DNA of 64,000 nucleotides from Clostridia bacterium (GTDB lineage Bacteria > Bacillota > Clostridia > TANB77 > CAG-465): assembly GCA_036635835.1 (NCBI GenBank), contig JAVWPP010000002.1:4990-68989 (forward strand), given 5' to 3'. The translations under genes were made by a program, and so were the position numbers. Below, in pieces: positions 28,721-50,437 of the stretch. The notes below the pieces were generated by a model. That model made no database searches, was not told the DNA's origin, and was given only the letters and a program-made list of their open reading frames with translations. The number at the start of each line of letters is the position of its first letter. Position 1 is the first letter of the stretch.

Positions 28721-28919
28721 AATTTGTTCACCTCCTTTTTAACATTAAGTAAAAACTAAATCTTTACTTAGTCATAATTTGTGCAGTAAAAATGAAATAA
28801 TACATTTTAAATCGTTTTTTTCGAAAAAAATTGTGACAGAAAAATTTTTAATATGTCAAACTCATTGCATTTTTATGTAAAGTGTGATAAAATATAAGGG
28901 TAGATTACGGAGGTTAAAT

Positions 28920-30098: not shown

Positions 30099-30104
30099 AA
30101 AAAG

Positions 30105-30133
30105 CACGTAATATAAAAGTTACGTGTTTTTTT
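30105..30133. terminator. bidirectional terminator
   Basis: cacgtaa/ttacgtg hairpin then T7. There is also a T-run on the other strand. Confidence 0.55.
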
Positions 30134-30147
30134 ATTCCTAACTGAAT

Positions 30148-30369: not shown

Positions 30370-30713
30370 GAATATCACCTCTTTTTCTAAAATTATTATA
30401 TCAAGAAAAATTAACATGTACAATACATTATTGATAAAAAATGCAAATAGTTCAATCTTGTATACTTTTCATCATATTTACATCTTAAAGTGTTATCTAA
30501 TATAAAAAATCTCCCTATAAATATATAGAAGTAACTTATACTTTTTTCAATAAAAATAATAATACACTTACACATCTACTGTACAAAGTTCGAAATATTT
30601 AGCATATTAGCAGAATTCTTTCAGAAAATAGTGTAAAAAACTACGATTTTTTGTTGATGTATTATGTTAACTGTGATATAATATACACTATTAAAAGTAT
30701 CAAGGAGGTATAT

Positions 30714-32648
30714 ATGAAAAGAAAATTAATTATTATAATTTTAATATTCACAATAACATTTATAAATTTAAATTGTTGTGCGTACATATATGCTGCTCCT
30801 TTAGACAACATACCGCCAACAGTAACTATATATTATGCGGGCAACCAAGCTGTTAAATTAGGGGAAAGCATAGTATATAATATTACGTATTTAGATAATA
30901 CTAAAGTAGAAAGCATAAAATTAAAAAATTCAGATATAAGTTTAAATGGATTTACAGCTAATATAGATATACAAGCAAATCAAAATAAAAGAAAAATAAT
31001 ATTAAGCAACATTCAAGGTGAAATTGGAGTTAATAAATACATAAGTTTAAAACCAGGAACTGCTGTAGATATCTCTGGAAATGTAGCAAAAGGCGTGGAT
31101 AGAAGTGCGTACTTTAGAATTGTAGATTCTAAAGATTCAAAAAATCCAGATATATATTTAAGTGGACCATCAGACAAAACTGTACATATGGGAGAAAGCA
31201 TAACATATACGGCCAAATATTCAGACAATATAGGTATAGAAAAAATAAATTTAACAAGTAAAAATATAATACTAAACGGATTTGAAGCTAATATCAATGT
31301 TTATGGCTCAGGAATGGAGCGAAAAATAAAACTAAGCAATATAAGTGGGGAATATGATCAAGATAAAAGCATAACTATTAGCTCGGGAACGGCTGTAGAT
31401 GCCGCAGGAAATAAGGCTTATGGAATAAGTATGTCTCAAAAATTCTCAATAGTAGAAAAGCAAACAGATTTTAATGGCAAAATAATAAATATACCTGTAG
31501 AAGAATCCATTCTAACTTCTATTGAAGACCAAGAATCGTTTGAATGTACGGATCCTGTAACTTTAGAAATTGATAATAAAGTAAAAAAAGCTGGTATGTG
31601 GTTTGATGTTACTAGAGATAATGTTAAAAATTTTTATGAAAATAATTACATTTCCGAAGGCAAAACTTGCACATACAACATCCAATTTTATAATAATACA
31701 GATGAAAACTTAGAAAACGTACTAATCAGACTATCAATTCCTAAATCTGTGGATGTAGTAGAAGTTACAGCTGGCGGTGAAAAAGTAAGTAAAACTAATC
31801 AATTAACCGTAGTACAATGGAAAGTAGGAAAACTAGAAAAAGGTAAAGGATATACATTAAAAGCAAAAGTAAAATTTTTAGAAGATACAAACTTAAAAAA
31901 GAGTAAAGAGCTAGTTTCAGAATTTTTTTCTAAAGTAGATATGATATCAGATAAACAAATAAATTCCATGTATACAAGGCAAGCGTTTGTTGATCTTTCT
32001 AAAAATAAATCGGCAAAGTCAAAAAAATATTTAAAAATATATACTTTTCCAAGTAAAATAAGCCCTAGCGAAAAAATATCTAAAGTGGATTTTGCTAGAA
32101 TAATAATAGATAGCGGTATAATAAAAAATATTCCTAGTAAAAAAGGATATAAGTCATATAACGATAAAAATAAAATACCGTTTAATCAAAGAAAAGCAGT
32201 TAGTACTATGACTGAAATTGGAATATTTATGCCAGATGAAAAGGGAAATTTAAATGCAGACAAGTTAATAACAAAAGCTGAAATGTATGATATATTGATG
32301 AAAGTTTTAAAATACAAGTATAATGATCTATTAGTAAGTGAAGCAACGCCCTTTATTGTAAATAAAGATATTACAAATAATGAAAATGAAGCATTAGAGT
32401 ATAAAAATTCAGTAATGCAGCTTATTAGAATGAACATAGTAGAAAGATCTAGTATAAATATAAGCGAAACAGCTACTATACAAGATGTATTGCAAGTAGT
32501 TAACTGCGTTACATATAGAGATAACATTGGAAAAATTAAAAATATAAACAATACAAAATTTGCAAAAGAAAACTTAGATCTTATTACTATTGCAACAAAA
32601 AATATTAAATATAAGTATGATAAAGACTTGAAAATGCAAGTAGTTTAA
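30714..32648 (+). CDS. secreted surface protein, two copies of the same repeat domain plus unrelated C-terminal region
   Basis: Start at MKRKLIII after aaggagg. Repeats GFTANIDIQANQNKRKIILSNIQGE and GFEANINVYGSGMERKIKLSNISGE. No sorting signal. Confidence 0.65.
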   Translation: MKRKLIIIILIFTITFINLNCCAYIYAAPLDNIPPTVTIYYAGNQAVKLGESIVYNITYLDNTKVESIKLKNSDISLNGFTANIDIQANQNKRKIILSNIQGEIGVNKYISLKPGTAVDISGNVAKGVDRSAYFRIVDSKDSKNPDIYLSGPSDKTVHMGESITYTAKYSDNIGIEKINLTSKNIILNGFEANINVYGSGMERKIKLSNISGEYDQDKSITISSGTAVDAAGNKAYGISMSQKFSIVEKQTDFNGKIINIPVEESILTSIEDQESFECTDPVTLEIDNKVKKAGMWFDVTRDNVKNFYENNYISEGKTCTYNIQFYNNTDENLENVLIRLSIPKSVDVVEVTAGGEKVSKTNQLTVVQWKVGKLEKGKGYTLKAKVKFLEDTNLKKSKELVSEFFSKVDMISDKQINSMYTRQAFVDLSKNKSAKSKKYLKIYTFPSKISPSEKISKVDFARIIIDSGIIKNIPSKKGYKSYNDKNKIPFNQRKAVSTMTEIGIFMPDEKGNLNADKLITKAEMYDILMKVLKYKYNDLLVSEATPFIVNKDITNNENEALEYKNSVMQLIRMNIVERSSINISETATIQDVLQVVNCVTYRDNIGKIKNINNTKFAKENLDLITIATKNIKYKYDKDLKMQVV

Positions 32649-32806
32649 CGAAAAATAGAGGAAACTCTATTTTTTTTTGTTAAATCATGGTCATAAACGC
32701 AAAGTATATTGAATTTTTATGTAATCTGTGGTATAATGAATGTATAGTTTAATATTTCTATAAACCTTTAAATAAAGATTTAATAAAATAATAGGAGATG
32801 ATAAGT

Positions 32807-35620
32807 ATGAAAATATTTATACAATATTTCAAAGACTATAGAGAATCTTACAAATCATTAAAACCATTGCAAAAATTAGTTCCTATATTAGGAATTGCAC
32901 TGGCTGCATTTTTAGCTAAAGTAAATGTAATTCTTACTTTGGTAGTTTTAGGACTATCATTTGTATATATTACTAACAATGCTACAAACGTAGCTAAGCT
33001 ACAAGAAAGTGAAAACAAAAACGCAGAACAATCTAATCCTTTCAGCATAGCAAAGGCAGTTATATTTTTCGCAATTCTTGCTTGTGTTTCTTATAAGCTT
33101 TGGACTGTTAACAAGGTGATCCTTGGAGTAGTAGTTGTCTTTATGGCATTTTATTATAACAAGAAAATCAAGGGAACAGTTCATTTAAGTAAGAAAAACA
33201 TTTCTTTTGACAAGACTAAAGCATTTTTTACAGAAAAGAAATTCGCAGGTATGTTTAAGTCATCAAAAGAAAACAAAAAAGAAAAGAAAGCAAAAACAGA
33301 CAAGAAAGCAAAAAATGAAATGAAAGATTCTAAATTTCAAAACTTTAAAGTATCAATAGTAGAAAAAGCAAAAATACTAAAACAAAAATTATTAAAAGGA
33401 GGCATTAATATGCGGACTTCAATTAGAAAACACTTAAATTTTAAAAACGTAGTAGTATCTATACTTTTAGCAGCATCCCTTAGCTTGGGTGGAATCTTTG
33501 CATATACACAACTTAGTAAAAAGCCATGTGATTGCAAAGCAAAAGCTCAATATCAGGAAATGCTAAATGAGGCTTATCAAGAATTAGACACAGCATACGA
33601 CGAAATAGACAAGCAAAATGAAAAAATTGAAGAATTAGATGACAAAATAGCTGAAATGGAAAATGAAGACAAAGCAGAAGTAGAAGCAAAAACAGAATCA
33701 GCTCCAATAGAAGCTATTACAACATCACCAATAACAGAGTACAATCCTAATAATAATAACAATAATTCAAGTTCGTCATTAGGCTCTTATAATAATGATA
33801 CAAGTAGTATTAATAAAGACAGTAGTTCAAATGGCGGAAATGACAATTCATCAACAGTTGATACACCAAGTTCTTCAGTAGATAATCAAGCACCACAAGT
33901 TAAACTTGTAGGTAACTCACAAGTCGAAGCAGGTAAAGAATACACACTACAAGTTATAATCGAAGACGAAAATCTTAAAGAAGTTGGCCAAGTAAAAGAT
34001 TATTTCAAAGGTTTAGAAAATGCAAAAATAGGAGAACCAACACAAATATCAAGCTCAAATTACAAGTTCCCTATAACATTTGAAAAAGCCGGCGAATACA
34101 AGGTTTATATTTCTGAAGGATTAGCTAAAGATACAGTAAATTTAACATCAGGTAAGAGCAACGAGCTAACAATTTCAGTAACAGAAGCTAAGCCAAACCC
34201 AGAAGATAAACCAGAAGTAGCAACAGATACTAATAAACCAGTTGTAACAGTAGAAACAAGTAACTTAAATCTTAAAACAGGCGAAAAAGTATCAATTACT
34301 CTTAAAGCAACTGATGACAACAAAATCGACAAATTCTATATTGGAGCTTCATTGATTAACGGCACAACAATAGGACAATTTGAAGTGGATTCAATTTCAG
34401 AAAATGACGATTCAAGAGTTGTTAATTTTATCGCTAAAAAAGCAGGAACTTACAATGTATCATTTAGTGAAGGAATCGCAGTTGACGAAGCAGGAAATAA
34501 ATCTGATGCACCTAACGCTATTACTTTCGTAGTAACAGACAAAGATAATTCAGAAGATAAACCTGTAGAGCCAGGACAACCAGTTGAACCAGTAGAACCT
34601 TCAAAAGATACAGAGAAGCCACAGCTTTCTTACGAGTCAAGTAATGCTACTATTTACGAAAATTTTACTATTACTTTAAATGCTAAAGACAATGTTGAGA
34701 TTAAATCATTTGATTTCAGTGAATCAGATATTAATTTACCAGAAGGATGCAAATATTTAAATCACAGTTTTAAAGATCAATCTACAGTAGAAATACTAAT
34801 TTTAGTGGACAGCCTTGTAGATGATTCAGGTAATTTAAATTTCAGTATTAACGAAGCGGTTGTTACAGACACTTCAGGTAATAAATCAGACCAATTGAAT
34901 ATTACTGTTCCTGTTACAGGAGTAGATAATACAGAGAAGCCAGAAGTATTACCAGAAGAACCAGAACAAAGTGAAGAATTAGCTATAACATTAAGCGCAG
35001 ACAGACAATCAGTAACATCAGGTGAAAGCTTTTACGTTATAGGAACTCCTAATACAACTCTTAACGGATATACTTTAAATAGAGCGAATATACAAGTACC
35101 GGAAGGTATTGAGATAGGTTCAATCGAACAAAGTACCGATAAAATTGTAATAGAGGTTAAAACTTCTACAAATGTTACAGGTTCAGTTAATATAACAATC
35201 GATAATGCAGTTAATACAGTTACAGTAGATGTTACACCAGTTGAAACTATCACTGAAAAACCGGTTACACCAGAAGCCCCAGCAGAAGAACCTATTATAG
35301 AAGAAGTAGTACCTAGTATTACAAGTCCTTCTATAGAGGAAAATAATGTTGAGGTGAAAGAAGAAACAGTTGTACCAGAAGCCCCAGTAGACAATATAGA
35401 AGAGGACGTTAAAGAAGAGGTTTCAAACGGTTCTGAAGAAGTAATTCAAAATGAAACAACTAACCAAGATGATTGGGAAGAAGTTAATATTGATGAAACA
35501 GTAGAACCAGTACAACCAGTAGAACCAGTACAACCAGTAGAATCAACACAACCAGTAGAAAATCAACAAGAAACTTTAGTTTCAGATGAAATTCCAGTCT
35601 TTGAATCAGCAGATAGCTAA
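32807..35620 (+). CDS. membrane-anchored giant surface protein (about 937 aa)
   Basis: Four predicted N-terminal TM helices, a coiled coil, an Asn/Ser-rich linker, repeated Ig-like segments and Pro-rich VEPVQPVEPVQPVESTQPV repeats. Confidence 0.65.
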   Translation: MKIFIQYFKDYRESYKSLKPLQKLVPILGIALAAFLAKVNVILTLVVLGLSFVYITNNATNVAKLQESENKNAEQSNPFSIAKAVIFFAILACVSYKLWTVNKVILGVVVVFMAFYYNKKIKGTVHLSKKNISFDKTKAFFTEKKFAGMFKSSKENKKEKKAKTDKKAKNEMKDSKFQNFKVSIVEKAKILKQKLLKGGINMRTSIRKHLNFKNVVVSILLAASLSLGGIFAYTQLSKKPCDCKAKAQYQEMLNEAYQELDTAYDEIDKQNEKIEELDDKIAEMENEDKAEVEAKTESAPIEAITTSPITEYNPNNNNNNSSSSLGSYNNDTSSINKDSSSNGGNDNSSTVDTPSSSVDNQAPQVKLVGNSQVEAGKEYTLQVIIEDENLKEVGQVKDYFKGLENAKIGEPTQISSSNYKFPITFEKAGEYKVYISEGLAKDTVNLTSGKSNELTISVTEAKPNPEDKPEVATDTNKPVVTVETSNLNLKTGEKVSITLKATDDNKIDKFYIGASLINGTTIGQFEVDSISENDDSRVVNFIAKKAGTYNVSFSEGIAVDEAGNKSDAPNAITFVVTDKDNSEDKPVEPGQPVEPVEPSKDTEKPQLSYESSNATIYENFTITLNAKDNVEIKSFDFSESDINLPEGCKYLNHSFKDQSTVEILILVDSLVDDSGNLNFSINEAVVTDTSGNKSDQLNITVPVTGVDNTEKPEVLPEEPEQSEELAITLSADRQSVTSGESFYVIGTPNTTLNGYTLNRANIQVPEGIEIGSIEQSTDKIVIEVKTSTNVTGSVNITIDNAVNTVTVDVTPVETITEKPVTPEAPAEEPIIEEVVPSITSPSIEENNVEVKEETVVPEAPVDNIEEDVKEEVSNGSEEVIQNETTNQDDWEEVNIDETVEPVQPVEPVQPVESTQPVENQQETLVSDEIPVFESADS

Positions 35621-38977: not shown

Positions 38978-41026
38978 TTGAAAAGCGAATTAGAAATATT
39001 AAAATTAAAAATAGAAGAAAATGATATAATATCTTTTGATATATTTGATACTTTAGTGTTTAGAAATGTAATGAAACCTAAAGACATATTTAAAATAGTA
39101 GAAGAAACTTTCATAGATCATGATATAATTAAAGGATTTGCAAAATTTAGAGCGGAATCCGAAGCAAAAGCAAGACTTTTATCTGGAAAAGAAGATATTG
39201 AATTAGATGAAATATATGATTTTATGGATGATAAGTATAAAGGTTATACAGAAAAGATAAAACAATATGAATTAGATATAGAAAAAGAGTTTATAGTAGA
39301 AAATAAGTTTATGAAAAAGGCATTTAATTATGCTAAAAAACTAAACAAAAAAATATTGATCATCTCAGATATGTATTTACCAAATTCATTTTTGCAGCTT
39401 GTTTTAGAAAAAGAAGGATATAAAGGATTTGATAATTTATATGTTTCTGGATCTCTAAACAAAACAAAAGCAACTGGTTCTATATATGAATTTGTAAGAA
39501 GCGAAAATAAAATTAGAATGAGTGATAAATGGTTACATATTGGTGACAATACTAGATCTGATATTGAAAACGCAAAGAGTAAAGGTATAAATGTTTTTTA
39601 TTATAAGCCACCAGCTGAAAGAATAAAATACAATTATAAAATGAATTTAAAAGAATCTATTATGAATGCAATACAGATCAATACTTCTAGAAATGGCATA
39701 GAAATTAGTACTTTCGAAAAAATGGGTATTGAAGACGTATCAAGCATATTTTATGGTTTTTGCGATTGGCTTGCTAGTGTAACATCTACGCAAGATAATT
39801 TAATGTTCCTATCTAGAGATGGATATTTTCCTCAAAAAGTGTATGAACTGTTTAAAGAAAAAAGAAAGATTGATGTATATACTAAATACTTGCTTACTTC
39901 AAGAAAAGCATATCAAATACCTGCTTATGCATTAATGGAAAAAAAGGATGTAATAGAACAGCTTACATTGTGGAACTCTCAATTAGATCATAAAATAACA
40001 ATAAAAGATATATATAAACAAGTTGGATTAGATGCTTCTAGCTTTATAAGAGAGATTAAGACTCTTGGTTTTAAAGATGAAAATACAGTATTGGATTTTA
40101 TGAATAGAGACAAGATAAAAAAATTACTTGCGCTTACATATAGCAAAATAAAGAAAAAACTTGAACTAAGATTAGAACTAGTAAAAGAATATCTAATTCA
40201 AGAAGGTGTAGATAAATTTGAACAATTAAATATTGTGGATATAGGATGGCGCGGAAGCATACATAATGCAATGCAAAAGATACTTTCTAATGATATAAAT
40301 GGATTTTATTTTGGAACAACAGAGCATGTATATGATGCAATAAGATTAAATACATTTGGATATTACTTTGATTTAGGTTTCCCAATAGAAAATAAACAAT
40401 TTGGGTTAGATAATGTAATGATGTTTGAGCTTATATTTAATTCTCCAGAGCAAAGTTTAAATTCTTTTGCAGAAGAAAACGGAAAAATAGTTCCCGTGTA
40501 TAGCACAAAGAAAAATACATATGGAAAAGATTTAAATACAATGCAAAATGCAGCGTTAGAGACTATTAAAGAATATATCAAATACGACAAATATCTTACA
40601 GGTATAACATGCAAATCTAGTATGAGAAACTATATTAATTTTATAATAGATAGAAATTATGAAGATAGAGCAGCGTTTAAAAACTTTACTAATGAAATAG
40701 GCATGGATGATGGTGAATACGGATATGTTTTAGAAGTTAGCAAAGAAACGTTCCTAAAAGATTATAAGAAGGTATTAGAAAAAGCTAAATTTAGTTTATG
40801 GCAAGATACTTTTGTTATAAAAGGCATAAATACAAAAGAAGAATACGATAAGTTTTTAAAAGAAAATAATATAAAAATCAAACGTAAAAATAAAGCAATA
40901 TATCATTTTGCAGATTATATATACATGGCAACTAAATTTCCTAGCAAGGTATTACATCGCTCAGGAAATGCAGTAAAAGCATTGATGATATCTAAAGCTG
41001 AAAAGAATAATAAGTGTGGTGAGTAG
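38978..41026 (+). CDS. large glycan-associated protein with HAD-like N-terminal motif and conserved DIGWRGS domain
   Basis: TTG start 6 nt after aggagagtg. FDIFDTLVFRN near the N-terminus, FLSRDGYFPQKVY and DIGWRGS. The C-terminal roughly 450 aa is paralogous to the C-terminal part of the 43000 gene. Confidence 0.6.
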   Translation: MKSELEILKLKIEENDIISFDIFDTLVFRNVMKPKDIFKIVEETFIDHDIIKGFAKFRAESEAKARLLSGKEDIELDEIYDFMDDKYKGYTEKIKQYELDIEKEFIVENKFMKKAFNYAKKLNKKILIISDMYLPNSFLQLVLEKEGYKGFDNLYVSGSLNKTKATGSIYEFVRSENKIRMSDKWLHIGDNTRSDIENAKSKGINVFYYKPPAERIKYNYKMNLKESIMNAIQINTSRNGIEISTFEKMGIEDVSSIFYGFCDWLASVTSTQDNLMFLSRDGYFPQKVYELFKEKRKIDVYTKYLLTSRKAYQIPAYALMEKKDVIEQLTLWNSQLDHKITIKDIYKQVGLDASSFIREIKTLGFKDENTVLDFMNRDKIKKLLALTYSKIKKKLELRLELVKEYLIQEGVDKFEQLNIVDIGWRGSIHNAMQKILSNDINGFYFGTTEHVYDAIRLNTFGYYFDLGFPIENKQFGLDNVMMFELIFNSPEQSLNSFAEENGKIVPVYSTKKNTYGKDLNTMQNAALETIKEYIKYDKYLTGITCKSSMRNYINFIIDRNYEDRAAFKNFTNEIGMDDGEYGYVLEVSKETFLKDYKKVLEKAKFSLWQDTFVIKGINTKEEYDKFLKENNIKIKRKNKAIYHFADYIYMATKFPSKVLHRSGNAVKALMISKAEKNNKCGE

Positions 41027-41813
41027 ATTGGAATTTTTAAAAGAAGTATGGAAAAACAAAAGAGTATTATGTTCAATGGTCAAAAACGATTTTGTAAATC
41101 GATTTGCAAATACTAGTTTAGGTGCTATTTGGGGATTTGTATCGCCAATAGTTTTAATAGTATTATATGCTTTTGTATTTGAATATATATTAAAGTTAAA
41201 TACAGCAGGAGAGTACCCATATTTAGTATGGTTTTTACCAGGAATAGTGATGTGGACTTTCTTAAATGATGCGATTTTAAATACAACTAATTCAATTAGA
41301 GAATATAGTTATTTAGTAAAAAAAATAGTTTTTCCAATTGATATTATTCCGTTAATAAAAGTATTTTCAACTTTTATTGTAGCTGCTGTTATGCTTGCTA
41401 TAGTAATAGCAATATCATTTTTTAATGGATTTTTACCAAATTTAATTATGCTTATTTATTATACATTAGCAGCTGTTTTCTTTATTATAGGTATAACGCG
41501 TCTTACGAGTGCTTTATCTGTAATGTTAGGAGATATAGCTCAGGTTGTTCCAGTTATAATGCAGCTTATGTTTTGGGCAACCCCTACTGTTTGGAATATA
41601 GCTATTGTTGATGATAAAATAGCTAATATAATAAAATTTAATCCACTTGCTTATTTAGTTTGTGGATATAGGGATGTATTTATAAATGGTAGTATATTTT
41701 CAGATAACAATTATATATTTACAATAGTGTTTTGGATAATTGCAGTGCTTGTTTTTATATATGGAAATATAATATTTAATAAAAATAAAGATGAATTTTC
41801 AGATGTTATATAG
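41016..41813 (+). CDS. ABC-2 type polysaccharide/teichoic-acid export permease (Wzm/TagG-like)
   Basis: Six TM helices with an ABC-2 family pattern. GTG start overlaps the upstream stop. Confidence 0.7.
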   Translation: MVSRLEFLKEVWKNKRVLCSMVKNDFVNRFANTSLGAIWGFVSPIVLIVLYAFVFEYILKLNTAGEYPYLVWFLPGIVMWTFLNDAILNTTNSIREYSYLVKKIVFPIDIIPLIKVFSTFIVAAVMLAIVIAISFFNGFLPNLIMLIYYTLAAVFFIIGITRLTSALSVMLGDIAQVVPVIMQLMFWATPTVWNIAIVDDKIANIIKFNPLAYLVCGYRDVFINGSIFSDNNYIFTIVFWIIAVLVFIYGNIIFNKNKDEFSDVI

Positions 41814-41822
41814 GAGGAAGAA

Positions 41823-43025
41823 ATGAGTAATAAAACGGTTATAAAACTAGATAATATAAGTAAAATATATAAAGTGTATCCTACTAAAATAAATCGTTTT
41901 TTAGAAGTAATGTTTTTTATTAAAAATAAACATGAAGAGTTTAATGCTTTATCTAATATAACATTTGAACTAAATAAAGGTGAAATATTAGGTATAATAG
42001 GAAGCAACGGTGCAGGTAAATCTACTTTGCTTAAAGTAATAACTGGTGTAACTAAACCTACATCTGGTAAATTATCTGTAAAGGGTAAGGTAGCATCACT
42101 TCTAGAGCTAGGAGCGGCGTTTAATTTTGAACTTACAGGTGTGCAAAACATTTATCAGCAAGGTCAAATTTTAGGAATGACAAAAGAACAAATAGACAGT
42201 AAAGTAGAAGATATTGTTGAATTCTCTGGAATAAATAAGAATGTTAATCAATTAGTTAAAACTTATTCTAGTGGTATGTTTGCAAGACTTGCGTTTTCTT
42301 GTGCAATTAATATGGATTTTGATGTTTTAATAGTAGATGAAATATTAAGTGTTGGAGATACAAATTTTCAAAACAAATGTATAAACAGAATGCAAGAATT
42401 AACGAAAGAAGGCAAAACAATATTATTTGTTTCTCATGATTTACATGCAGTAAAATATTTTTGTAATAGAGTTATTAGGCTAGATAAAGGCAGAATAATA
42501 GATGAGGGAGATAATGTTTTAGAAATCGTTGAAAAATACGAAAGAAATATAATGCCCGAGAGAGTAGATAATGAGAAAAAAGAAGTAAAAGAAAGAGCAT
42601 TTTCAACTAATGAAATTGTAACTATAGATAAAGTTATCTTAAAAGATGGAGCAGGGAATAGGACTAAGAAATTTAAGCATAAAGAAAATATTAAAGTGCA
42701 AATAAATTATACATTGCATAAATATGAAGAAGGTATGTTTTTTGGTGTTGGATTTAGAAATAGTAATAATGACTATATAAATGGTATGAATACAAAGCAG
42801 GAAGGCTTGGAAATACAGCAAAAGCCGGGAGAATATACACTTGAATTAGAATATATATGCCCAATGGTATATAAAGATATATATTCATTATGGGGAGTGT
42901 GTTATAATTCGTCAGGAACAGTGGTATTAAGTGATTATATAATAAAAGACGCATTTGAAGTCTATGTAGACAAGGATGTATGTGAAGGAGTGACATATAT
43001 TGAACACAATTGGCAATACAAGTAG
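41823..43025 (+). CDS. ABC exporter ATP-binding protein with C-terminal glycan-binding domain (Wzt/TagH-like)
   Basis: Walker A GSNGAGKST, signature YSSGMFARL, Walker B LIVDE, and a roughly 150-aa beta-rich C-terminal extension. Confidence 0.75.
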   Translation: MSNKTVIKLDNISKIYKVYPTKINRFLEVMFFIKNKHEEFNALSNITFELNKGEILGIIGSNGAGKSTLLKVITGVTKPTSGKLSVKGKVASLLELGAAFNFELTGVQNIYQQGQILGMTKEQIDSKVEDIVEFSGINKNVNQLVKTYSSGMFARLAFSCAINMDFDVLIVDEILSVGDTNFQNKCINRMQELTKEGKTILFVSHDLHAVKYFCNRVIRLDKGRIIDEGDNVLEIVEKYERNIMPERVDNEKKEVKERAFSTNEIVTIDKVILKDGAGNRTKKFKHKENIKVQINYTLHKYEEGMFFGVGFRNSNNDYINGMNTKQEGLEIQQKPGEYTLELEYICPMVYKDIYSLWGVCYNSSGTVVLSDYIIKDAFEVYVDKDVCEGVTYIEHNWQYK

Positions 43026-46005
43026 TAGTAGATATATTAGAAAAATTGATTATAGAGAACCAACTGCAGATTATAAGATAGCAAATCAAGTTAAAGATGG
43101 TTCTAAAGTATTAGAAATAGGTACATCAAGTGGGTATATGTCAGAATTCCTTGTTAAGGAGAAAAACTGCATACTTTCAGGTGTGGAATATAATACAGAG
43201 CTTTTTAATAAAGCAAAAGTTTTTTTTGAAAATGGATATAATGAAGATCTAAATAAAATAACTCAGTGGGAAGATAAAATACAAGATAATTATTTTGATT
43301 ATATAATTTGTCAAGATGTATTAGAGCATTTGTTAAATCCATTTGAAGTTATTAAAGCGCTTATGAAAAAACTAGCTAAAAACGGCAAAATATTAGTTTC
43401 TATACCGAATGTATCTCATAATGCAATTTTGATGGAAATACTTAAAGATAAATTTTCATATGAGCAATCTGGAAGTTTGGATTATACTCATTTTAAGTTC
43501 TATACAGCTAAATCTTTTAAAGACGAAGCAAATAAAATAGGTCTTAAAGTAATTCATCATGATATAACATATTTAATACCGGAAGATTCAAGTTTGAATA
43601 ATAGCTATAAAGATTATAGTTTGAAAGAAAGAGAAGTGCTTTTTGATCATTATAATGGACATGTATTTCAAAATATTTTTGTTCTTGGAAAAAAAGAAGA
43701 ATATGCTGATGAAAAAGAAAAATTAATTCAATTTAAATTGCAAAACTATGATGAGGTTATTATAGAAACTAAAAGTAATGTAAAGAGATATTATTATCAT
43801 GATGCTGAATTAATAGAATATATTTTAGAAAAAGGTACTCAAAATGTTAAAATATATCCAAGTATAAGACTTAAAAAATTTAATGTGGATTTGTATATTA
43901 ATGATGAAAAACAGTATATATCTTCTTTTGATTATCAAGCTGGAATTATACATGAAAATGAAGATAGATATATTTCTACTGGAACTGAATGTATAAATTT
44001 AAAAAGAGATTTTAAAAAAGGAGATAAAGTAGGAATACGCATTACTAGTAGCGAGAGTATTTTTGATCAGATTATAAAAGGCGAAAATTATTTTAATTCC
44101 GAAATAACTAATATTAAAGCGAAAATAGATAAATATACCCACATTTCTATAGCTGCATGGGATACGTTTATTTTAAAAAATGTGCTTAAATTTGACGATA
44201 TAATAGAGATAGTAGATAGAAAAGTAAGAACTAAGTTTGGTATAAATAACTTTGCTAAAAGGAGATTAGCTGCTAAATCGTATGAAATAGATGAAATTTA
44301 TGAAGAGTTAAGAATATTTTTAAAAGATAAAACCGAAGATGTTAAAAAAATAGAAATAGAGACTGTTCAAGAGTTTTCTATAGTTAACCCATTTATGCTT
44401 GAGATTTTGGATTTTTGCAAAAGACAAAATAAAAATGTGTATATTGTTAATAATGGTTATCTAGATAGCAACATTTTGATGGCTGTGCTGCATAATTTGC
44501 AGATTACTAATTTAAAAGTTATATCATATGATGATCTGCTTAAGTTCGATCTAGATCAGCTATTGCATATTGGTTCGGATATAAAAAAAGATATTATTAA
44601 TCTTAAAAGTTTAAATATAAATACGTATATGTATAAGGCTGTGCAAAAACGAGTAGAAAATAGAAAGAGTTTGGAAACTAAAAATATCTCAGAATCTATT
44701 ATGAGAGCCATTCAATATAATTATATATATAACGGCCTGCATATTAAATATTTTGAAAAGTTTGGTATTGAAAACGTAGCACCTATATACTTCTATTTTA
44801 CAAACTGGTTATACAATAAAAGTAAAGATAAAGACAATATATTTTTCTTATCTAGGGATGGATATATGCCATTTAAAGTATATAAATTGCTTCAGAAAAG
44901 TAGAAATACAGATAAATATATTAAGTATGTGTATGCGTCAAGAAAAGGTTATCAAATACCTGGACTTGCAACTGTAGGAATAGACAAAGCTTTGAGCGTT
45001 TTAACAGAGTTTAATTTGCAGTTAGATGAACAGCTTATACTTTCAGATGTTTTTAAAAATGCAACATTAAACCCAGAAGAAGTTTCAAAACAAAAGTTAG
45101 AAAAGTATGGCTTTAAATCTATAGATGCTAAAGTTAATATTAAAAACATAAATAAAGCAAAAGAACTGCTTAAAGAATACTATCCAAAAATTAAAGAAAA
45201 CTTGCAAAATAAATTAGAGCTTGCAAGAGAATATTTAAAATCTGAAGAATTTGATAAATTTGATACAGTAAATATTGTAGATATTGGTTGGAGAGGTAGC
45301 GTGCAAAATTACATACAAAAAATAATGAATAAAAAAACGTATGGATACTATTTTGGAACAATACCTACAGAATATAAAGAAATAAGAAAAAATATGCTTG
45401 GTTGCTATAGCAATAAATTTATGCCGCTATTACGTAGTGAATTTATATTAGATAACATTATGATGTTTGAGCTTGTATTTTCAGCACCGTTTCCACCACT
45501 TGTTGGTTTCGAAAAAAATAGTAAAGGCAAGGTTGTTCCGGTATTTAGTAGTGTAAAATCAGACACCTTTAATAAAGCAGTTAAAACTTTTCAAGAATCT
45601 GCTCTATATATTATAGAAAAATTTATGGATTATGATGAGTATCTATCAGAAATAGATATAGACTTTTCACTTAGTAATTATAAAAAATATATTGCGGATA
45701 AAAAGTACGCAGATATAATTGAAATGCATAAATTACAAACTAACATAGGTTATGGCGAAAAACAGCGTAAATACGTAGAAACAGTCAAACTTGAAACATT
45801 ACTTGCAGACAATATAAAAGTGCTTAAAAAGGCTAATTACGGCTTCTGGAAAGGTGCTATATACATAGAAGGAGTAGAAACACAAAAAGAATATGACGAA
45901 ATAAAGAAGAAATATAACTTTAAGACGTCGCTTGGCGCAATTAAAGCTTCTAGGTATTACAGAGGAGCAGAAGCTATGTTAAATAAGAAGCAAAAAAATA
46001 AATAA
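43000..46005 (+). CDS. fusion protein with N-terminal class I SAM-dependent methyltransferase plus a diverged copy of the DIGWRGS domain (WbdD/WsaE-like chain-terminator candidate)
   Basis: MTase motif I VLEIGTSSGYMSEFL, post-I DYIICQDVLEHL. The C-terminal half aligns with the 38978 protein (FLSRDGYMPFKVY, DIGWRGS). TTG start overlaps the upstream gene by 26 nt. Confidence 0.6.
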   Translation: MNTIGNTSSSRYIRKIDYREPTADYKIANQVKDGSKVLEIGTSSGYMSEFLVKEKNCILSGVEYNTELFNKAKVFFENGYNEDLNKITQWEDKIQDNYFDYIICQDVLEHLLNPFEVIKALMKKLAKNGKILVSIPNVSHNAILMEILKDKFSYEQSGSLDYTHFKFYTAKSFKDEANKIGLKVIHHDITYLIPEDSSLNNSYKDYSLKEREVLFDHYNGHVFQNIFVLGKKEEYADEKEKLIQFKLQNYDEVIIETKSNVKRYYYHDAELIEYILEKGTQNVKIYPSIRLKKFNVDLYINDEKQYISSFDYQAGIIHENEDRYISTGTECINLKRDFKKGDKVGIRITSSESIFDQIIKGENYFNSEITNIKAKIDKYTHISIAAWDTFILKNVLKFDDIIEIVDRKVRTKFGINNFAKRRLAAKSYEIDEIYEELRIFLKDKTEDVKKIEIETVQEFSIVNPFMLEILDFCKRQNKNVYIVNNGYLDSNILMAVLHNLQITNLKVISYDDLLKFDLDQLLHIGSDIKKDIINLKSLNINTYMYKAVQKRVENRKSLETKNISESIMRAIQYNYIYNGLHIKYFEKFGIENVAPIYFYFTNWLYNKSKDKDNIFFLSRDGYMPFKVYKLLQKSRNTDKYIKYVYASRKGYQIPGLATVGIDKALSVLTEFNLQLDEQLILSDVFKNATLNPEEVSKQKLEKYGFKSIDAKVNIKNINKAKELLKEYYPKIKENLQNKLELAREYLKSEEFDKFDTVNIVDIGWRGSVQNYIQKIMNKKTYGYYFGTIPTEYKEIRKNMLGCYSNKFMPLLRSEFILDNIMMFELVFSAPFPPLVGFEKNSKGKVVPVFSSVKSDTFNKAVKTFQESALYIIEKFMDYDEYLSEIDIDFSLSNYKKYIADKKYADIIEMHKLQTNIGYGEKQRKYVETVKLETLLADNIKVLKKANYGFWKGAIYIEGVETQKEYDEIKKKYNFKTSLGAIKASRYYRGAEAMLNKKQKNK

Positions 46006-46010: not shown

Positions 46011-46041
46011 GGAGATAGATTTATATTCTATCTCTTTTTTT
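46011..46041 (+). terminator. intrinsic terminator
   Basis: gagatag/ctatctc hairpin followed by T8. Confidence 0.6.
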
Positions 46042-46138: not shown

Positions 46139-46312
46139 CTAGTGTTTTCTTTTTCTAGCTGCTTCAGATTTCTTTTTTCTTTTTACGCTAGGTTTTTCAT
46201 AGTGTTCTCTTTTTCTTATTTCAGCAAGAACCCCATATTTAGCGCATTGTTTTTTGAATCTAGCAATAGCATTATCTAAACTTTCATTGTCTTTTAATTT
46301 TATTCCTGGCAT
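46139..46312 (-). CDS. rpsU: 30S ribosomal protein S21
   Basis: [48 protein letters not shown]. Start taken at the MPG ATG after ggaaggagggg. The track ORF extends further upstream and is probably spurious. Confidence 0.8.
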
Positions 46313-46583
46313 CGTCATTCCCCTCCTTCCAGCGGGAAATACCTTGTAAATTTTAAAGTATTTCAGAATTACTTTTCCATTATACATTATTTTTTGGCGA
46401 TAGTCAAGTCTATGTGTAAAAAAATATTATGTTTATTGAAAAGGTTAACCAATATACCTACTTAAACGACTATATTATCCTAAATACAATTAAATTTATT
46501 GAATTATATTGTTAGAAATATCTCAATGTTTCTTTACATTATGCAATTCATATAGTAGAATAAGTAGGAAGAGGTGACCGGTG

Positions 46584-47807
46584 ATGGCAGAAAAAAAAGA
46601 AAATAAAATAATTAAGGTAATAATAACGCTAATCATGATAGTATTATTGGGATGGAGCGTGTATTATATAGCGATAGATACATTAAAAGGTCCATCAGTA
46701 GATGGTAATAAAGCATCTAAAAACAATAAGGAAATTAATGAACAATTAAAAAGAGTAGAAGAAGTTCTAAAAAAAATAGATTCTAAATATAAAGGAACAG
46801 AAGAAATAGATTTAGATAAACTTGGTGAGGGTGCTTTAAGAGGCATATTTGCTATGATAGAAGATCCGTATACTAGATATTTAGATAAAGAAGATTATAA
46901 AGATTCTGTTACTCCATCTAATGAAGAATACGTTGGAATAGGTATAACTAGTACTTTTAGTGAGGAAAAACAAAAAGGATATATAATAAGTATTCTTCCT
47001 GAATCACCAGCATCTGAAAGCGGAATATGGATAGGAGATGCTTTAAAAAAAGTAGGAGATTTAGAAGTTACAAGTTATGATACATATAAAGAAGCAATGA
47101 CAATACTAAGAGGTGTTGAAAATACTACTGTAGATGTAGTTTTAGACAGGGATGGTGAAACTATTACAAAGTCTGTAACAAGAAGAAAAGTTAAAGAAAA
47201 TTGTTTGACTGCGAAGACTATTGAGAAAAATATAGGTTATATAAGAATATATTCTTTTGATTTTAATGTTGCTGATAAGTTTAAAAAAGAATATAACTCT
47301 TTTAAAGAACAAGGAATAAGTAAATTAGTTATAGATTTACGTGGAAATCCAGGTGGAATTGTTGATGAAGCTGTTGAAATTGCAGATTTATTTATACCTG
47401 GAAATGATGTTATTTTAGAAACTGTATATAAAGATGGAAGTAGTAAATTTAAAAAAGCTGTCGATGGAAAAGCATCAGACATGAAAGTTACTATTTTGAC
47501 AAATGAAAATTCAGCTAGTGCTTCTGAAATATTAGCAAGCGCGTTAAAAGATTATAAAGTGGCTACTATTGTAGGAGAAAAGACTTATGGTAAAGGCATA
47601 GTTCAGTCATACGAAGGACTTAGAGCTGGTGATGGAGTTAGTATTACTGTAGCTGAGTATTTTACAAAAAATAGAGCTGTAATTCATAAAAATGGTATTG
47701 AACCAGACATTGAAGTTATTGCTACAAAAGATGAAAAGAAACAAATAGATATGGATGTAAAAAAAGATAGCGTTTTAAGAAGAGCTATTGAAGAATTAAA
47801 TAAATAG
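46584..47807 (+). CDS. ctpA: carboxy-terminal processing protease (S41, PDZ domain)
   Basis: N-terminal TM, a PDZ region, and S41 catalytic-region motifs GNPGG, TNENSASASE and KTYGKG. Confidence 0.8.
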   Translation: MAEKKENKIIKVIITLIMIVLLGWSVYYIAIDTLKGPSVDGNKASKNNKEINEQLKRVEEVLKKIDSKYKGTEEIDLDKLGEGALRGIFAMIEDPYTRYLDKEDYKDSVTPSNEEYVGIGITSTFSEEKQKGYIISILPESPASESGIWIGDALKKVGDLEVTSYDTYKEAMTILRGVENTTVDVVLDRDGETITKSVTRRKVKENCLTAKTIEKNIGYIRIYSFDFNVADKFKKEYNSFKEQGISKLVIDLRGNPGGIVDEAVEIADLFIPGNDVILETVYKDGSSKFKKAVDGKASDMKVTILTNENSASASEILASALKDYKVATIVGEKTYGKGIVQSYEGLRAGDGVSITVAEYFTKNRAVIHKNGIEPDIEVIATKDEKKQIDMDVKKDSVLRRAIEELNK

Positions 47808-47816
47808 GTGAATTGT

Positions 47817-50396
47817 ATGAAAAAAGTAAAAGAAAATGTAAATAAAGTAGAATTAGTAGCAGCAAAAATTGTGGTTATAGCGGTAGGACTTATAATTTTT
47901 CTATTATCATTAACAAGAGGTGGATATTATAGGCAAGAAAATGTGGTTGCAAACTTTTGCATAACAGCTCTTGGCGTATGTTATGTGTCTTATATGATTT
48001 TTAAAAACGTAAAAAGCAAGACTAAATTTCAAATGATAGATATCTTAGACTTATTAGTTGTAGCATTAACTTTTGCAACATCTTTACCAATACTTTTTGG
48101 TAAATGCGTTGCAAAAGGGGCGGCTTTTGCAGGAATTGAAAGATATATGTCTTTTGCAATTATATATTTTATAATAAAAGAAGTTATAAAGGTATCTGCT
48201 TTTGCAAATAAAGAAGCGGGTAGATATAAGATAAATAATATACTGTCCTTTATTATAGCTATATCAAGCATGGTTGTATGCTTTTTTGGAATAGATCAGC
48301 TAGCAGGGCAGACATTTGAAGGGTTTTTAAGTATATTTAATATAGATTATACAACGGAATTTGTCACAAGACTTTCTTCTGTGTTTCAATATGCAAACGT
48401 AGCAAGTATGTTTATAGCTATTGGGCTTTTTACAACAATATATTTGATATATATAAGTAAGAATAAAGTGCTTAAAACTTTCCTTATATCTGCAGCATAT
48501 GTAGAATATTTATCTATACTTATGACGCAGTCTAGAATGTGCATTGTTTTTACAAGTATAGTGCTTATTTTGCTTATGATATGCCTTAAAAAAGCAGAAG
48601 AACGAAACATAGGTATAATTTCAGTGATAGCTTTAATGATATATTCTGCTATATTTTATGCGGTTATTTATAATTTTATAAAATTAGAAGCTGTAAATGA
48701 AATTTGGATTGTTACGATAGTTTCAATTATACCGGTTTCTTTAATTGCGTTCTTTTCTATTAAAGTACTTGTGTATTTTACAGAAGAATTAAAAAACAAA
48801 AAAATATTTATTTACACACTTTTAGGCATTTTAGCGATTTCTGCAGGTATAATAGTTTTTACTTTTTCTCAAACTAAATCTATTGTTGTAACAGATGGTC
48901 TAGTAAGAAAAACAAGTGTAAATTCAAATAAAGATATTACTTTAGATATTTCCATGAAAAATGTAGATAGTGAGAATAGTGCAAATATAACTGTTGAAAT
49001 TTTTAATAAAGGTTATGAAAGTTTGCAAAAAAAAGTTTATGAATTTAATACTAAAGAAAAAGCTAGTGTAAAAGAAGATCTTAAAAAGCATAAAAATGCT
49101 AAATATATTACTTTTACAGTAGCGGATGTAAAGGGAAAACCTATTTTAGATAAAATAAATGTGCAAAATGCGAAGCTGCCACTAGATTATAAGTTTATTT
49201 CTTATGATATTGCCCAAAAAATAAATGAGATTTTCGAGGGGTCATCTAGTATAGATTACAGATTTATGTATATGAAAGATGGAATATCTTTATGGAATAC
49301 TAGCAAAATAGTTGGTATTGGCAATGATGGTTTTAGAAATGCGTATCAGTCAGTTCAGTCTAGAATGTATATTTCAAGCGAAGTACACAGCTATCCTGTA
49401 GATATTCTAGTTAATTATGGCGCAATAGGGTTTACTGCATATGTGCTTATTGTTTGCGTAGCAGGGTATGCTCTTGTAAAAAAATATATTGATGAAAAAG
49501 ATAAAAATAATGCATTTAAGTATATTAATTTACTTGCTATTCTTGTGCTACTTGTAGTTCATAGTATGTTTGACCTAGACTTTTCATATTCAATAATACT
49601 ATATTTATTTGCTATATTACTTGCGCAGGTTCCAGAGGTCTCTATATGCAAAATACAAGGCTTTAAGGTATCTACTGCTGTAGTATGCATAATATGCACA
49701 GTATCTGTAGGAGGCATGTTTTTAAGCAATGCTAAGTATTTAATTGCATATAGTATAGCAGATAATTTAAAAACTAAGACTATAACTGAAGAAAATGCAA
49801 AAGAACGTATTTCTCTATATGAGAAAACTGTTGTATTTGCGCCTACGGATTATGATTATAGAGCTAAATTAAGTGAGCAGTATAGCACATATATGGCTAT
49901 TTTGTCTAAAACTATTTTAGATACTAACGAGGTTAAAAAAGCAGATGCAGTTAAAGAAGTCAAAAGGGTTATTCCTTTAATAAAGGATAATTTAATAAAA
50001 ATAAACGAGCAAAATCCGTATAATAAGTATGCAATTCAAAAAGTAGCAGCTAATTATTTTAAGAATTTTATTAATTTCACTAAAGCTGAGGGAAAAGCAT
50101 CATATACAGAAGAACTTAATTATGCTGTAGATTTAGCTATTAAGATAGTGGATGTTGGACCTATTAATGATACAAATTATAGCTTTTCAGCAGAAACGCT
50201 AGATGGTATGTATGTGAATTTAGAAAAACTTAATATGGGTGAAAATTCTAAAGATAAGTTAATAGCAATGGATAAGATTAAAAAAGAATTAAAAGGATTT
50301 CCTAGTAAAATAGAAAATAATTTTAGTAAAAAAGGTCAAAAAAGAAGCATAAACGATATGCCAAGTATTTTAGAAATTGTTAATAAATATAATTAA
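47817..50396 (+). CDS. O-antigen ligase (Wzy_C) family polytopic membrane protein with long C-terminal extracytoplasmic TPR-like region
   Basis: More than 10 TM helices. Wzy_C-like block GIGNDGFRNAYQ...SEVHSYPVDILVNYGAIGFTAYVLIV. A roughly 250-aa helical C-terminal domain. Confidence 0.6.
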   Translation: MKKVKENVNKVELVAAKIVVIAVGLIIFLLSLTRGGYYRQENVVANFCITALGVCYVSYMIFKNVKSKTKFQMIDILDLLVVALTFATSLPILFGKCVAKGAAFAGIERYMSFAIIYFIIKEVIKVSAFANKEAGRYKINNILSFIIAISSMVVCFFGIDQLAGQTFEGFLSIFNIDYTTEFVTRLSSVFQYANVASMFIAIGLFTTIYLIYISKNKVLKTFLISAAYVEYLSILMTQSRMCIVFTSIVLILLMICLKKAEERNIGIISVIALMIYSAIFYAVIYNFIKLEAVNEIWIVTIVSIIPVSLIAFFSIKVLVYFTEELKNKKIFIYTLLGILAISAGIIVFTFSQTKSIVVTDGLVRKTSVNSNKDITLDISMKNVDSENSANITVEIFNKGYESLQKKVYEFNTKEKASVKEDLKKHKNAKYITFTVADVKGKPILDKINVQNAKLPLDYKFISYDIAQKINEIFEGSSSIDYRFMYMKDGISLWNTSKIVGIGNDGFRNAYQSVQSRMYISSEVHSYPVDILVNYGAIGFTAYVLIVCVAGYALVKKYIDEKDKNNAFKYINLLAILVLLVVHSMFDLDFSYSIILYLFAILLAQVPEVSICKIQGFKVSTAVVCIICTVSVGGMFLSNAKYLIAYSIADNLKTKTITEENAKERISLYEKTVVFAPTDYDYRAKLSEQYSTYMAILSKTILDTNEVKKADAVKEVKRVIPLIKDNLIKINEQNPYNKYAIQKVAANYFKNFINFTKAEGKASYTEELNYAVDLAIKIVDVGPINDTNYSFSAETLDGMYVNLEKLNMGENSKDKLIAMDKIKKELKGFPSKIENNFSKKGQKRSINDMPSILEIVNKYN

Positions 50397-50410
50397 AAAT
50401 TAGGCTTGAA

Positions 50411-50437
50411 AAAGGACATGGTTACATGTCCTTTTTG
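50411..50437. terminator. bidirectional terminator
   Basis: aaaggacatg gtta catgtccttt followed by T5. The gene downstream is convergent. Confidence 0.65.

Follow-up and report, generated by a model that had tools for sequence, protein, structure and literature searches.

A four-gene operon occupies positions 38978-46005 of a 64,000-nucleotide (nt) stretch of DNA from a Clostridia bacterium (assembly GCA_036635835.1, contig JAVWPP010000002.1, positions 4,990-68,989, forward strand), which is referred to here as the window. We consider it probable that this operon encodes a minimal ATP-binding cassette (ABC) transporter-dependent pathway for a surface glycan of beta-ribofuranose (Ribf), with phosphoribosyl pyrophosphate (PRPP) as the donor. 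Its two large products, of 682 and 1001 amino acids (aa), share the domains of a known family of ribofuranosyltransferases (Ribf-GTs), namely, a HAD-like phosphatase domain (PRP) followed by a glycosyltransferase domain (gPRT). The larger of the two carries a methyltransferase (MTase) at its N terminus and has lost the catalytic residues of its PRP. The two remaining products form a Wzm/Wzt-type exporter.

All four genes lie on the forward strand of the window, which has a G+C content of approximately 28%. Gene 1 (38978-41026, TTG start) encodes the 682-aa protein, gene 2 (41016-41813, GTG start) a permease of 265 aa, gene 3 (41823-43025, ATG start) an ATPase of 400 aa, and gene 4 (43000-46005, TTG start) the 1001-aa protein. 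Genes 1 and 2 overlap by 11 nt, the start of the latter lying over the stop of the former, genes 3 and 4 overlap by 26 nt, and a gap of 9 nt separates genes 2 and 3. The TTG and GTG starts and the coupling overlaps agree with what a previous, sequence-only reading of this region had described. GGAG-type ribosome-binding sites are located 8 nt upstream of the TTG codons at 38978 and 43000. Two database entries from a "Clostridia bacterium" metagenome-assembled genome (MAG), P0001 (682 aa) and P0121 (1001 aa), are 100% identical to the large proteins over 100% of their length. Independent gene callers had thus picked the same starts, which confirms the gene models. A terminator-like hairpin with a 9-bp stem and a T-rich tail (46011-46035, forward strand) follows 6 nt past the stop of the 1001-aa gene. 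Together, these features confirm a translationally coupled operon of four genes that is closed by a terminator.

Two proteins with ribofuranosyltransferase domains

The 682-aa protein had no match in Pfam and yielded only weak HAD-IA matches in NCBIfam. At least 1887 relatives were found in the database. Most of them are about 670 aa long and are labelled "HAD-IA family hydrolase" or "hypothetical," and their hosts include Clostridium, Paenibacillus, Vibrio, Kluyvera, and many other lineages. A family profile built from 73 homologues was searched against the PDB. It matched the Thermobacillus composti "ribofuranosyl transferase" 7SHG with an E value of 6e-53 (query residues 14 to 576) and the CrpP-CriT part of Bcs3, the capsule polymerase of Haemophilus influenzae type b, with an E value of 3e-49 (query residues 19 to 596). 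The 682-aa protein itself is approximately 22% identical to 7SHG. An AlphaFold2 (AF2) model of the protein (pLDDT of 92.4) gave the same two structures as its top PDB matches in Foldseek, with E values of about 1e-23; across both large proteins, the top PDB matches were Bcs3 (8A0C/8A0M) and 7SHG with E values from 1e-24 to 1e-17. Both models thus show the fold of the family, in which a HAD-fold domain precedes a gPRT built of a PRTase-like alpha/beta core and helical bundles. The sequence-only reading had been unable to assign the domain that the two proteins share, and it had listed a known glycosyltransferase (GT) family as the identity that would count against its interpretation. The PRP-gPRT ribofuranosyltransferases are such a family. 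It has already been described, biochemically characterized, and structurally solved (PMC11231755, PMC11294581, PMC10299916), the first description of PRPP-dependent ribofuranosyltransferases dating from 2022 (Kelly et al. 2022, as cited in PMC11231755 and PMC11294581).

In the 682-aa protein, the HAD-like PRP domain comprises residues 1 to 218 (nt 38978-39631, forward strand) and the gPRT domain residues 219 to 633 (nt 39632-40876, forward strand), after which a helical C-terminal tail follows. Individual residues were mapped through the profile-PDB alignment, with roles taken from PMC10299916; it should be noted that the chain numbering of Bcs3 in the PDB is offset by 3 from the native one. 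The HAD motif is intact (SFDIFDTLV). Its nucleophile, D21, the Asp numbered D14 in STM0726 and D386 in Bcs3, is invariant in the 73 sequences, and S130/D131 of motif II, K164 of motif III, and G189/D190 of motif IV are all present. The gPRT residues S279/R280/D281, S308/R309, D421-S427, and E484 show no or almost no variation among the 73 homologues. The FLSRDGY motif holds the equivalents of S678/R679/D680 of Bcs3, and the SR of TSRKAY corresponds to S707/R708. DIGWRGS is the equivalent of Bcs3 loop 3 plus E818, which hold the ribose and the 5-phosphate of PRPP (PMC10299916), and the E of MFELIF is equivalent to E874, the proposed base (PMC10299916). Both window proteins and all aligned relatives retain these gPRT active-site equivalents. 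By family, predicted fold, and catalytic residues, the 682-aa protein is a complete PRP-gPRT ribofuranosyltransferase for which homology predicts PRPP-dependent transfer, and it is a candidate polymerase.

The AF2 model of the 1001-aa protein (pLDDT of 87.8, pTM of 0.79) contains four domains, the boundaries of which were taken from its secondary structure. A class I S-adenosylmethionine (SAM) methyltransferase domain extends over residues 1 to 235 (nt 43000-43704) and an all-beta domain over residues 250 to 353 (nt 43747-44058). A degenerate PRP with HAD fold, in which the catalytic motifs are lost, occupies residues 367 to 560 (nt 44098-44679), and a gPRT domain with intact catalytic motifs occupies residues 561 to 975 (nt 44680-45924), all on the forward strand. 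Pfam Methyltransf_23 matched residues 32 to 187 with 65 bits, in line with the N-terminal class I SAM methyltransferase predicted earlier. When the model was searched with Foldseek, the C-terminal part matched Bcs3 and 7SHG with E values of about 1e-19 and the N terminus matched the Bacillus cereus methyltransferase 3CC8 with an E value of 1e-12. The all-beta domain was also considered as a copy of the carbohydrate-binding Wzt_C domain, and this was rejected; hhalign of the two profiles (16 versus 6 sequences) returned a probability of 0.4% and no detectable relation.

Residues 3 to 633 of the 682-aa protein and 367 to 975 of the 1001-aa protein are 37% identical (E value of 4e-121). The paralogy that had been recognized is therefore real, but the shared region measures about 630 aa including the HAD-like part, not about 450 aa. 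The HAD-like motif, as had also been observed, is intact in one copy and degenerate in the other. In the 1001-aa protein, motif I has lost its nucleophile (D21 to A; SIAAWDTFIL versus SFDIFDTLV), S130/D131 of motif II are replaced by N/N, the lysine-bearing loop of motif III is deleted, and D190 of motif IV is replaced by S. With its PRP catalytic residues lost and its gPRT intact, this protein is not a complete dual-function member of the family. The same losses occur in its three closest homologues (P0122 to P0124), which are 54 to 55% identical to it. About 12 other fusions do not show them, for example, those of Clostridium beijerinckii and Clostridium saccharobutylicum and P0056 from locus L087; motifs I to III are kept in P0056 and in the C. 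beijerinckii fusion. Comparison of the window protein with P0122 gave identities of 71% for the MTase, 55% for the gPRT, and 41% for the pseudo-PRP, whereas between the same two genomes, the active PRP found in the 682-aa protein shows 60% identity. Since the pseudo-PRP is the least conserved domain, the phosphatase appears to be a relaxed relic attached to a gPRT that is maintained. We regard the 1001-aa protein as a candidate chain terminator or co-polymerase.

The sequence-only reading had likened this protein to both WbdD and WsaE. Its MTase domain matches many MTase-GT2 and MTase-GT4 fusions with 30 to 40% identity, among them a Geobacillus stearothermophilus "glycosyltransferase" (P0139), and the likeness to a WsaE-type fusion is thus upheld. 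The likeness to WbdD was reduced to an analogy. WbdD was neither among the PDB matches found with phmmer at E values up to 1e-3 nor among the top 50 Foldseek matches. Pfam and NCBIfam scans revealed no kinase family in the 1001-aa protein, and no extended coiled coil was seen in the secondary structure of the AF2 model. A GT2 domain was not matched either, the C-terminal 640 aa consisting of pseudo-PRP and gPRT.

Pfam and NCBIfam searches with all open reading frames (ORFs) of 120 aa or more from the 64-kb window detected neither a classical glycosyltransferase nor a phosphoglycosyltransferase family. The earlier statement that the window lacks a glycosyltransferase is accordingly correct for the classical families, but not for the two large proteins, which are themselves glycosyltransferases. 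This explains the absence of a classical GT near the operon.

The exporter and the proposed pathway

The 265-aa permease matches ABC2_membrane (PF01061, 58 bits) and is of the Wzm-type ABC-2 class, although the NCBIfam models for galactan Wzm/RfbD and KpsM were hit weakly and below their cutoffs. The 400-aa ATPase matches ABC_tran (PF00005) with 79 bits and, at residues 263 to 360, Wzt_C (PF14524) with 32.6 bits, the gathering score being 30.4. Its best PDB match is the Wzt of Aquifex aeolicus (8DKU, E value of 1.4e-69, residues 9 to 341), and this alignment runs beyond the nucleotide-binding domain into the Wzt_C region. The carbohydrate-binding domain (CBD) covers approximately residues 256 to 400 (nt 42588-43022, forward strand). 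An ABC-dependent glycan module with a C-terminally extended Wzt, as inferred from the sequence before, is borne out by these matches. The C-terminal 145 aa of Wzt are 74% identical in the syntenic ortholog of L085 and 36 to 50% identical in related cassettes of Kluyvera, Vibrio, C. beijerinckii, and L087.

The same ATPase could point to a teichoic acid-type exporter (TagG/TagH) accompanied by two accessory HAD phosphatases, because its best NCBIfam matches are PRK13545 (235 bits) and PRK13546 (187 bits) and because the 682-aa protein shows weak HAD-IA matches. This reading is extremely unlikely and is contradicted by the data. Both scores fall far under the curated cutoffs (538 and 320 bits, respectively), and the ATPase carries Wzt_C and is closer, among PDB entries, to A. 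aeolicus Wzt (238 bits) than to TarH and TagH (209 and 175 bits). The HAD domain of the 682-aa protein makes up just its N-terminal third, the rest being gPRT, and no TagF/TagB-type or CDP-alcohol enzymes were found in the window with Pfam.

On the example of characterized homologues, we propose that the gPRT of the 682-aa protein would transfer ribose-5-phosphate from PRPP onto a growing lipid-linked chain and that its PRP would remove the 5-phosphate, thereby permitting further extension. This is the two-step chemistry of dual-domain Ribf-GTs, in which ribofuranose-5-phosphate (Ribf-5-P) is added from PRPP by the gPRT and then dephosphorylated by the PRP (PMC11231755, PMC11127046, PMC11294581, PMC10299916). 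The backbone would be a ribofuranan primed on an undecaprenyl-linked sugar, with the initiating enzyme encoded elsewhere. A ribofuranan is the most likely backbone because the 682-aa enzyme is the only complete transferase in a terminator-bounded operon with no other GT nearby. There is precedent for both steps, as WecA primes enterobacterial ABC-dependent O antigens, and STM0726 alone polymerizes beta-1,2-ribofuranan and starts on another sugar (PMC11294581). The gPRT of the 1001-aa protein would add the last ribofuranose and the fused MTase would methylate the chain end, the PRP being a structural relic. The CBD of Wzt would read the methylated terminus so that Wzm/Wzt exports finished chains only. 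A Wzy_C-type protein, probably the 862-aa protein encoded 1.8 kb downstream, may then attach the glycan to a final acceptor. Termination, capping, and recognition by the CBD are modeled on WbdD/Wzt and WsaE/Wzt and on the association of the genes; the system would work like these terminators, yet it is a member of neither group.

Several known systems resemble parts of this pathway. The proteins ORF5(O4) and ORF7(O7) of Klebsiella pneumoniae and 7SHG of T. composti likewise have a HAD-like phosphatase followed by a gPRT, with the same fold and catalytic residues, and dual-domain Ribf-GTs are also encoded beside wzm/wzt in ABC transporter-dependent loci. Unlike the known examples, the window operon belongs to a Gram-positive spore-former, its locus has no partner GT of the Leloir type, and its second copy is an MTase fusion whose phosphatase residues are gone. 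In the Salmonella T1 locus, STM0726, together with STM0725, provides a PRP-gPRT ribofuranan polymerase whose product is exported by Wzm/Wzt (PMC11294581). However, STM0726 requires a catalytically inactive GT-A-like partner, which is missing here, the T1 ribofuranan sits on a galactofuranan, and the genes of the T1 locus are described without a methyltransferase (PMC11294581). Additional N-terminal domains in front of PRP-gPRT are known from Bcs3, Campylobacter jejuni Cj1432, and the capsule polymerases of the Escherichia coli K13 type (PMC10299916, PMC12096443, PMC13171606). Like Bcs3 (CroT-CrpP-CriT, 8A0C) and Cj1432 (GT4-PRP-gPRT), the fusion protein has an extra catalytic domain at its N terminus (PMC10299916, PMC12096443), and the active-site residues of Bcs3 map one to one onto the window proteins. 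In contrast to both, the addition consists of a SAM methyltransferase and a beta-domain instead of a transferase, and the PRP has lost its catalytic residues. The capsule system of Bcs3 is one of group 2, in which an ABC transporter is likewise used but a chain-terminating residue is absent (PMC11231755).

The closest parallel for the terminator is found in the wsa system of Geobacillus, where WsaE caps the S-layer rhamnan through its N-terminal O-methyltransferase and the methylated end is the predicted ligand of Wzt (PMC2943079). WsaE/WsaF/Wzm/Wzt/WsaB and the window operon share a capping-type MTase fused to one or more GT domains, a separate second GT, overlapping wzm, wzt, and fusion genes, and, for the window tentatively, an associated Wzy_C-type transferase (PMC2943079). 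They differ in that the window proteins have gPRT domains rather than GT2 rhamnosyltransferases and that the locus contains neither rml genes nor a WsaP-like initiator; S-layer linkage is known from wsa, and the glycan of the window is a predicted one. Terminal methylation, by which chain growth is stopped and export through a CBD-bearing Wzt is licensed, is also the logic of WbdD (E. coli O9a/O8) and ORF6-O7-N (K. pneumoniae O3/O7) (PMC3482155, PMC11231755). Unlike WbdD, the fusion has no kinase domain, no coiled-coil ruler, and no detectable similarity in the sequence or fold of its MTase. Functionally characterized Ribf-GTs act in Gram-negative O antigens and capsules, 7SHG being only putative (PMC10299916). 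In the literature searched, which covered the founding 2022 work through the papers citing it, we found no MTase-gPRT fusion, no natural PRP-dead member, no cassette of this kind, and no functionally characterized Gram-positive Ribf-GT locus.

A recurring cassette and alternative assignments

The combination of Wzm, Wzt with Wzt_C, this MTase, and a Ribf-GT, either fused or adjacent, was present in eleven loci when the L085 contig was counted apart from the window; those named for the cassette are the window, L081, L083, L084, L085, L087, L089, L090, L091, and L092. Their hosts span from Vibrio and Kluyvera to Clostridia, and the MTases are 42 to 53% identical to that of the window. The surrounding GTs differ from cassette to cassette (none, GT4, GT2, or rml genes). 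Three genes alone, Wzm, Wzt, and the fusion, make up L090, and L091 is the same with a GT4 gene nearby. L087 is a five-gene operon (Wzy_C, Ribf-GT, Wzm, Wzt, fusion) flanked by housekeeping genes. In L092 and L081, the cassette is embedded in rhamnose-type clusters that contain phosphoglycosyltransferase and Wzy_C genes in addition to GT2, GT4, and rml genes. MTase-lacking Ribf-GT clusters (L088 and L003) have a short Wzt without a CBD. The constant exporter, CBD, MTase, and gPRT, combined with variable backbone machinery, are the signature of a terminator/export module. These findings suggest a portable module that caps a glycan with methylated ribofuranose and exports it.

In Vibrio gazogenes and Kluyvera sichuanensis, the gene order is Wzt, Ribf-GT, MTase, and Wzm, and the MTase is a stand-alone protein of 362 aa. 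The K. sichuanensis cassette (CP162271.1; L084:6287-16710) belongs to the O-antigen region, with wzz and the his operon close by. A copy of gnd stands on either side of it and an insertion sequence (rve) transposase next to it, and it looks like a recently inserted mobile cassette. It was also considered as a known O-antigen locus of E. coli; a megablast search with 5.2 kb against 5,426 complete E. coli genomes returned no match. A paper on E. coli O101/O162 refers to an MTase terminator, but ribofuranose and a HAD protein do not appear in it.

Several clusters contain further variants. In L089, the order is phosphoglycosyltransferase, Ribf-GT, a protein combining a type I phosphoribosyltransferase with an MTase, Wzm, and Wzt with Wzt_C. 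No other recognizable GT was found there, and a trailing ORF of 590 aa, which runs off the contig end, had no Pfam match. The combined protein, P0125 (L089:3613-5280, 555 aa), carries its MTase behind a type I phosphoribosyltransferase domain (PF00156, 48.9 bits); the MTase is 37% identical to that of the window, and the protein has no PRP-gPRT and no phosphatase. It represents a second, independent pairing of this MTase with a PRPP-type domain that lacks a phosphatase. Immediately upstream of the MTase-PRP-gPRT fusion of C. beijerinckii (CP010086.2), a 460-aa ORF (L081:8485-9933) without a Pfam match is 26% identical to the gPRT of the 682-aa protein over residues 273 to 538 (E value of 5e-13) and, judged by this alignment, may represent a gPRT that stands alone, with no PRP. 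Just downstream of the L081 cluster lies a gene for a group II intron reverse transcriptase. Tandem divergent Ribf-GT paralogues occur in a Clostridiaceae MAG (L001/L088:10001-14787) and in Paenibacillus polysaccharolyticus (L003:9965-14092), where they follow Wzm and a short, CBD-less Wzt, with no MTase; in L088, they are accompanied by rmlABCD and Wzy_C genes. In L088 and L003, Firmicutes employ paired Ribf-GTs in a different manner, without a terminator.

The role of the fusion protein can be read in another way, which we regard as possible at a lower probability. As in WsaE/WsaF, both gPRT domains might polymerize and produce two alternating Ribf linkages, with termination by methylation alone. 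The single active PRP, that of the 682-aa protein, would dephosphorylate both products in a heterocomplex, and the dead PRP would be a tolerated loss. This would be in keeping with the capping MTase of WsaE, which is fused to polymerase GTs and works with a separate GT, WsaF (PMC2943079), with the fully intact gPRT catalytic residues of the 1001-aa protein, and with the trans-dephosphorylation of a Ribf-5-P product by wild-type STM0726 (PMC11294581). In addition, PRP motifs I to III are kept in the C. beijerinckii fusion and in P0056, an outgroup with the same gene order; the loss of PRP is therefore derived, and the module does not depend on that loss. The rapid divergence of the pseudo-PRP, the fastest-evolving domain (41%, compared to 60% for the active PRP), fits a relaxed loss. 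However, L090, which consists of Wzm, Wzt, and the fusion, and the Vibrio and Kluyvera cassettes, with a stand-alone MTase and one Ribf-GT, indicate that two gPRTs are unnecessary, and in the rhamnose-type L092, the fusion resembles an add-on to a different backbone.

It is unlikely, in our view, that conventional GTs encoded elsewhere in the genome make the backbone, while the Ribf-GTs only add a side-chain, adaptor, or terminal Ribf that the MTase caps. Most characterized Ribf-GTs do add a single Ribf per heteropolymer repeat, as in K. pneumoniae O4 and O7, H. influenzae type b, and C. jejuni HS:2 (PMC11231755, PMC10299916, PMC12096443), and the presence of GT2, GT4, and rml genes in the related L081 and L092 agrees with such a role. 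On the other hand, polymerase GTs normally adjoin wzm/wzt in ABC transporter-dependent loci, and such families were not found in the 64-kb window. The four-gene, terminator-bounded operon stands among housekeeping and sporulation genes in conserved synteny, and L087 and L089 are likewise self-contained.

The dead PRP could also have a function of its own, although we consider this quite unlikely. A PRP-dead gPRT joined to an MTase would constitute a kinase-independent route to a phosphorylated and methylated chain cap. Ribf-5-P would be added from PRPP and its 5-phosphate left in place; the MTase would then methylate the terminus, possibly on the phosphate, to give a methyl-phosphoribosyl cap comparable to the methyl-phosphate cap for which WbdD employs a kinase. 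Methylation would shield the cap from the PRP of the 682-aa protein, and competition between dephosphorylation and methylation could set the chain length. The four motif losses are kept in a clade within which identity has fallen to 55%, the phosphatase-free P0125 of L089 pairs the same MTase with a type I phosphoribosyltransferase, and the PRP-dead D14A mutant of STM0726 adds one Ribf-5-P and then stops (PMC11294581), all of which would fit this idea. Against it, other fusions keep an active PRP yet share a similar Wzt CBD.

Genomic neighborhood and implications

The operon is flanked by housekeeping and sporulation genes. Upstream are genes for PolC, a sortase and large surface proteins, a STAS/anti-sigma pair, and two pseudouridine synthases; downstream are rpsU and genes for an S41 peptidase, a Wzy_C-like membrane protein, SipL, and YunB. 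This gene order is kept in L085, a genome whose orthologues are only 55 to 75% identical. The Wzy_C-like protein (47808-50396, forward strand, 862 aa) is a polytopic membrane protein and a possible ligase or O-oligosaccharyltransferase. It matches Pfam Wzy_C (PF04932) with 24.3 bits, below the gathering score of 31.7, whereas its syntenic 846-aa ortholog in L085 matches PF04932 at E values up to 1e-5. Approximately 12 to 14 hydrophobic segments, a large loop (residues 357 to 531), and a soluble C terminus were distinguished. Pfam also identified Wzy_C proteins in or beside the related clusters L087, L081, L088, and L092, and a neighboring ORF of L003 matches the 862-aa protein with 49 bits in phmmer. 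A phmmer search of the related loci with the 862-aa protein returned L085/L086 and a weak match in L003 but no others; L087, L081, and L088 encode Wzy_C proteins of different subfamilies.

The gene for an S41 (CtpB-like) peptidase (46581-47807) abuts the start of the 862-aa gene, which is followed by a terminator (50409-50436), and this gene pair is also kept in L085. Between the operon and the S41 gene, ribosomal protein S21 is encoded on the reverse strand (46139-46387). As listed, its ORF has 82 aa and probably begins at too early a start, the syntenic gene of L085 having 57 aa. Farther upstream (27713-35620), a sortase gene precedes the genes of three large secreted proteins, which measure 404, 665, and 940 aa. 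DUF11 and Big_12 were matched in the 665-aa protein, and the 940-aa protein contains a VPVTG motif at residue 704, while a canonical C-terminal LPXTG signal was not seen. The region may be a pilus or adhesin locus, and it is conceivable as a glycan acceptor. A series of seven co-directional ORFs (15715-20734; 262, 220, 143, 178, 516, 150, and 134 aa) had no Pfam match and, in NCBIfam, yielded only an Athe_2463 domain (516-aa ORF) and a sub-threshold FlgA-like match (220-aa ORF).

Several points weigh against the ribofuranan pathway proposed above. The cassette is known in all its members from genes alone, and GTs encoded elsewhere could make the backbone; GT2, GT4, and rml genes are indeed present in several related clusters, where the Ribf-GT is thus not the sole backbone enzyme. 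Pfam and NCBIfam did not reveal an initiating phosphoglycosyltransferase in the window, and the primer is thus assumed. The GT domains fused to the MTase in WsaE are polymerase domains and not terminators (PMC2943079), and on this precedent, the gPRT of the 1001-aa protein may be a co-polymerase. The Wzt_C match lies above its threshold by a narrow margin, and binding of methylated ribofuranose by this CBD is purely presumed. The 862-aa protein is encoded in a separate transcription unit, has a sub-threshold Pfam score, and showed no phmmer match to the Wzy_C protein of L087 at 1e-5; we include it in the system tentatively.

Should the proposed pathway hold, the four genes would need only PRPP and SAM, both universal metabolites, which would simplify the reconstitution of polymerization, termination, and CBD-gated export, and the operon would serve the glycoengineering of a defined ribofuranan. 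The conserved PRP-dead gPRT can be considered a natural counterpart of the laboratory D14A mutant, which halts elongation. For the family as a whole, proteins of about 670 aa that are annotated as "HAD-IA family hydrolase" or "hypothetical" would be better described as glycosyltransferases. A portable cassette of Wzm, CBD-bearing Wzt, MTase, and Ribf-GT that is common to Gammaproteobacteria and Clostridia implies a methylated-ribofuranose cap and a Wzt that reads it.

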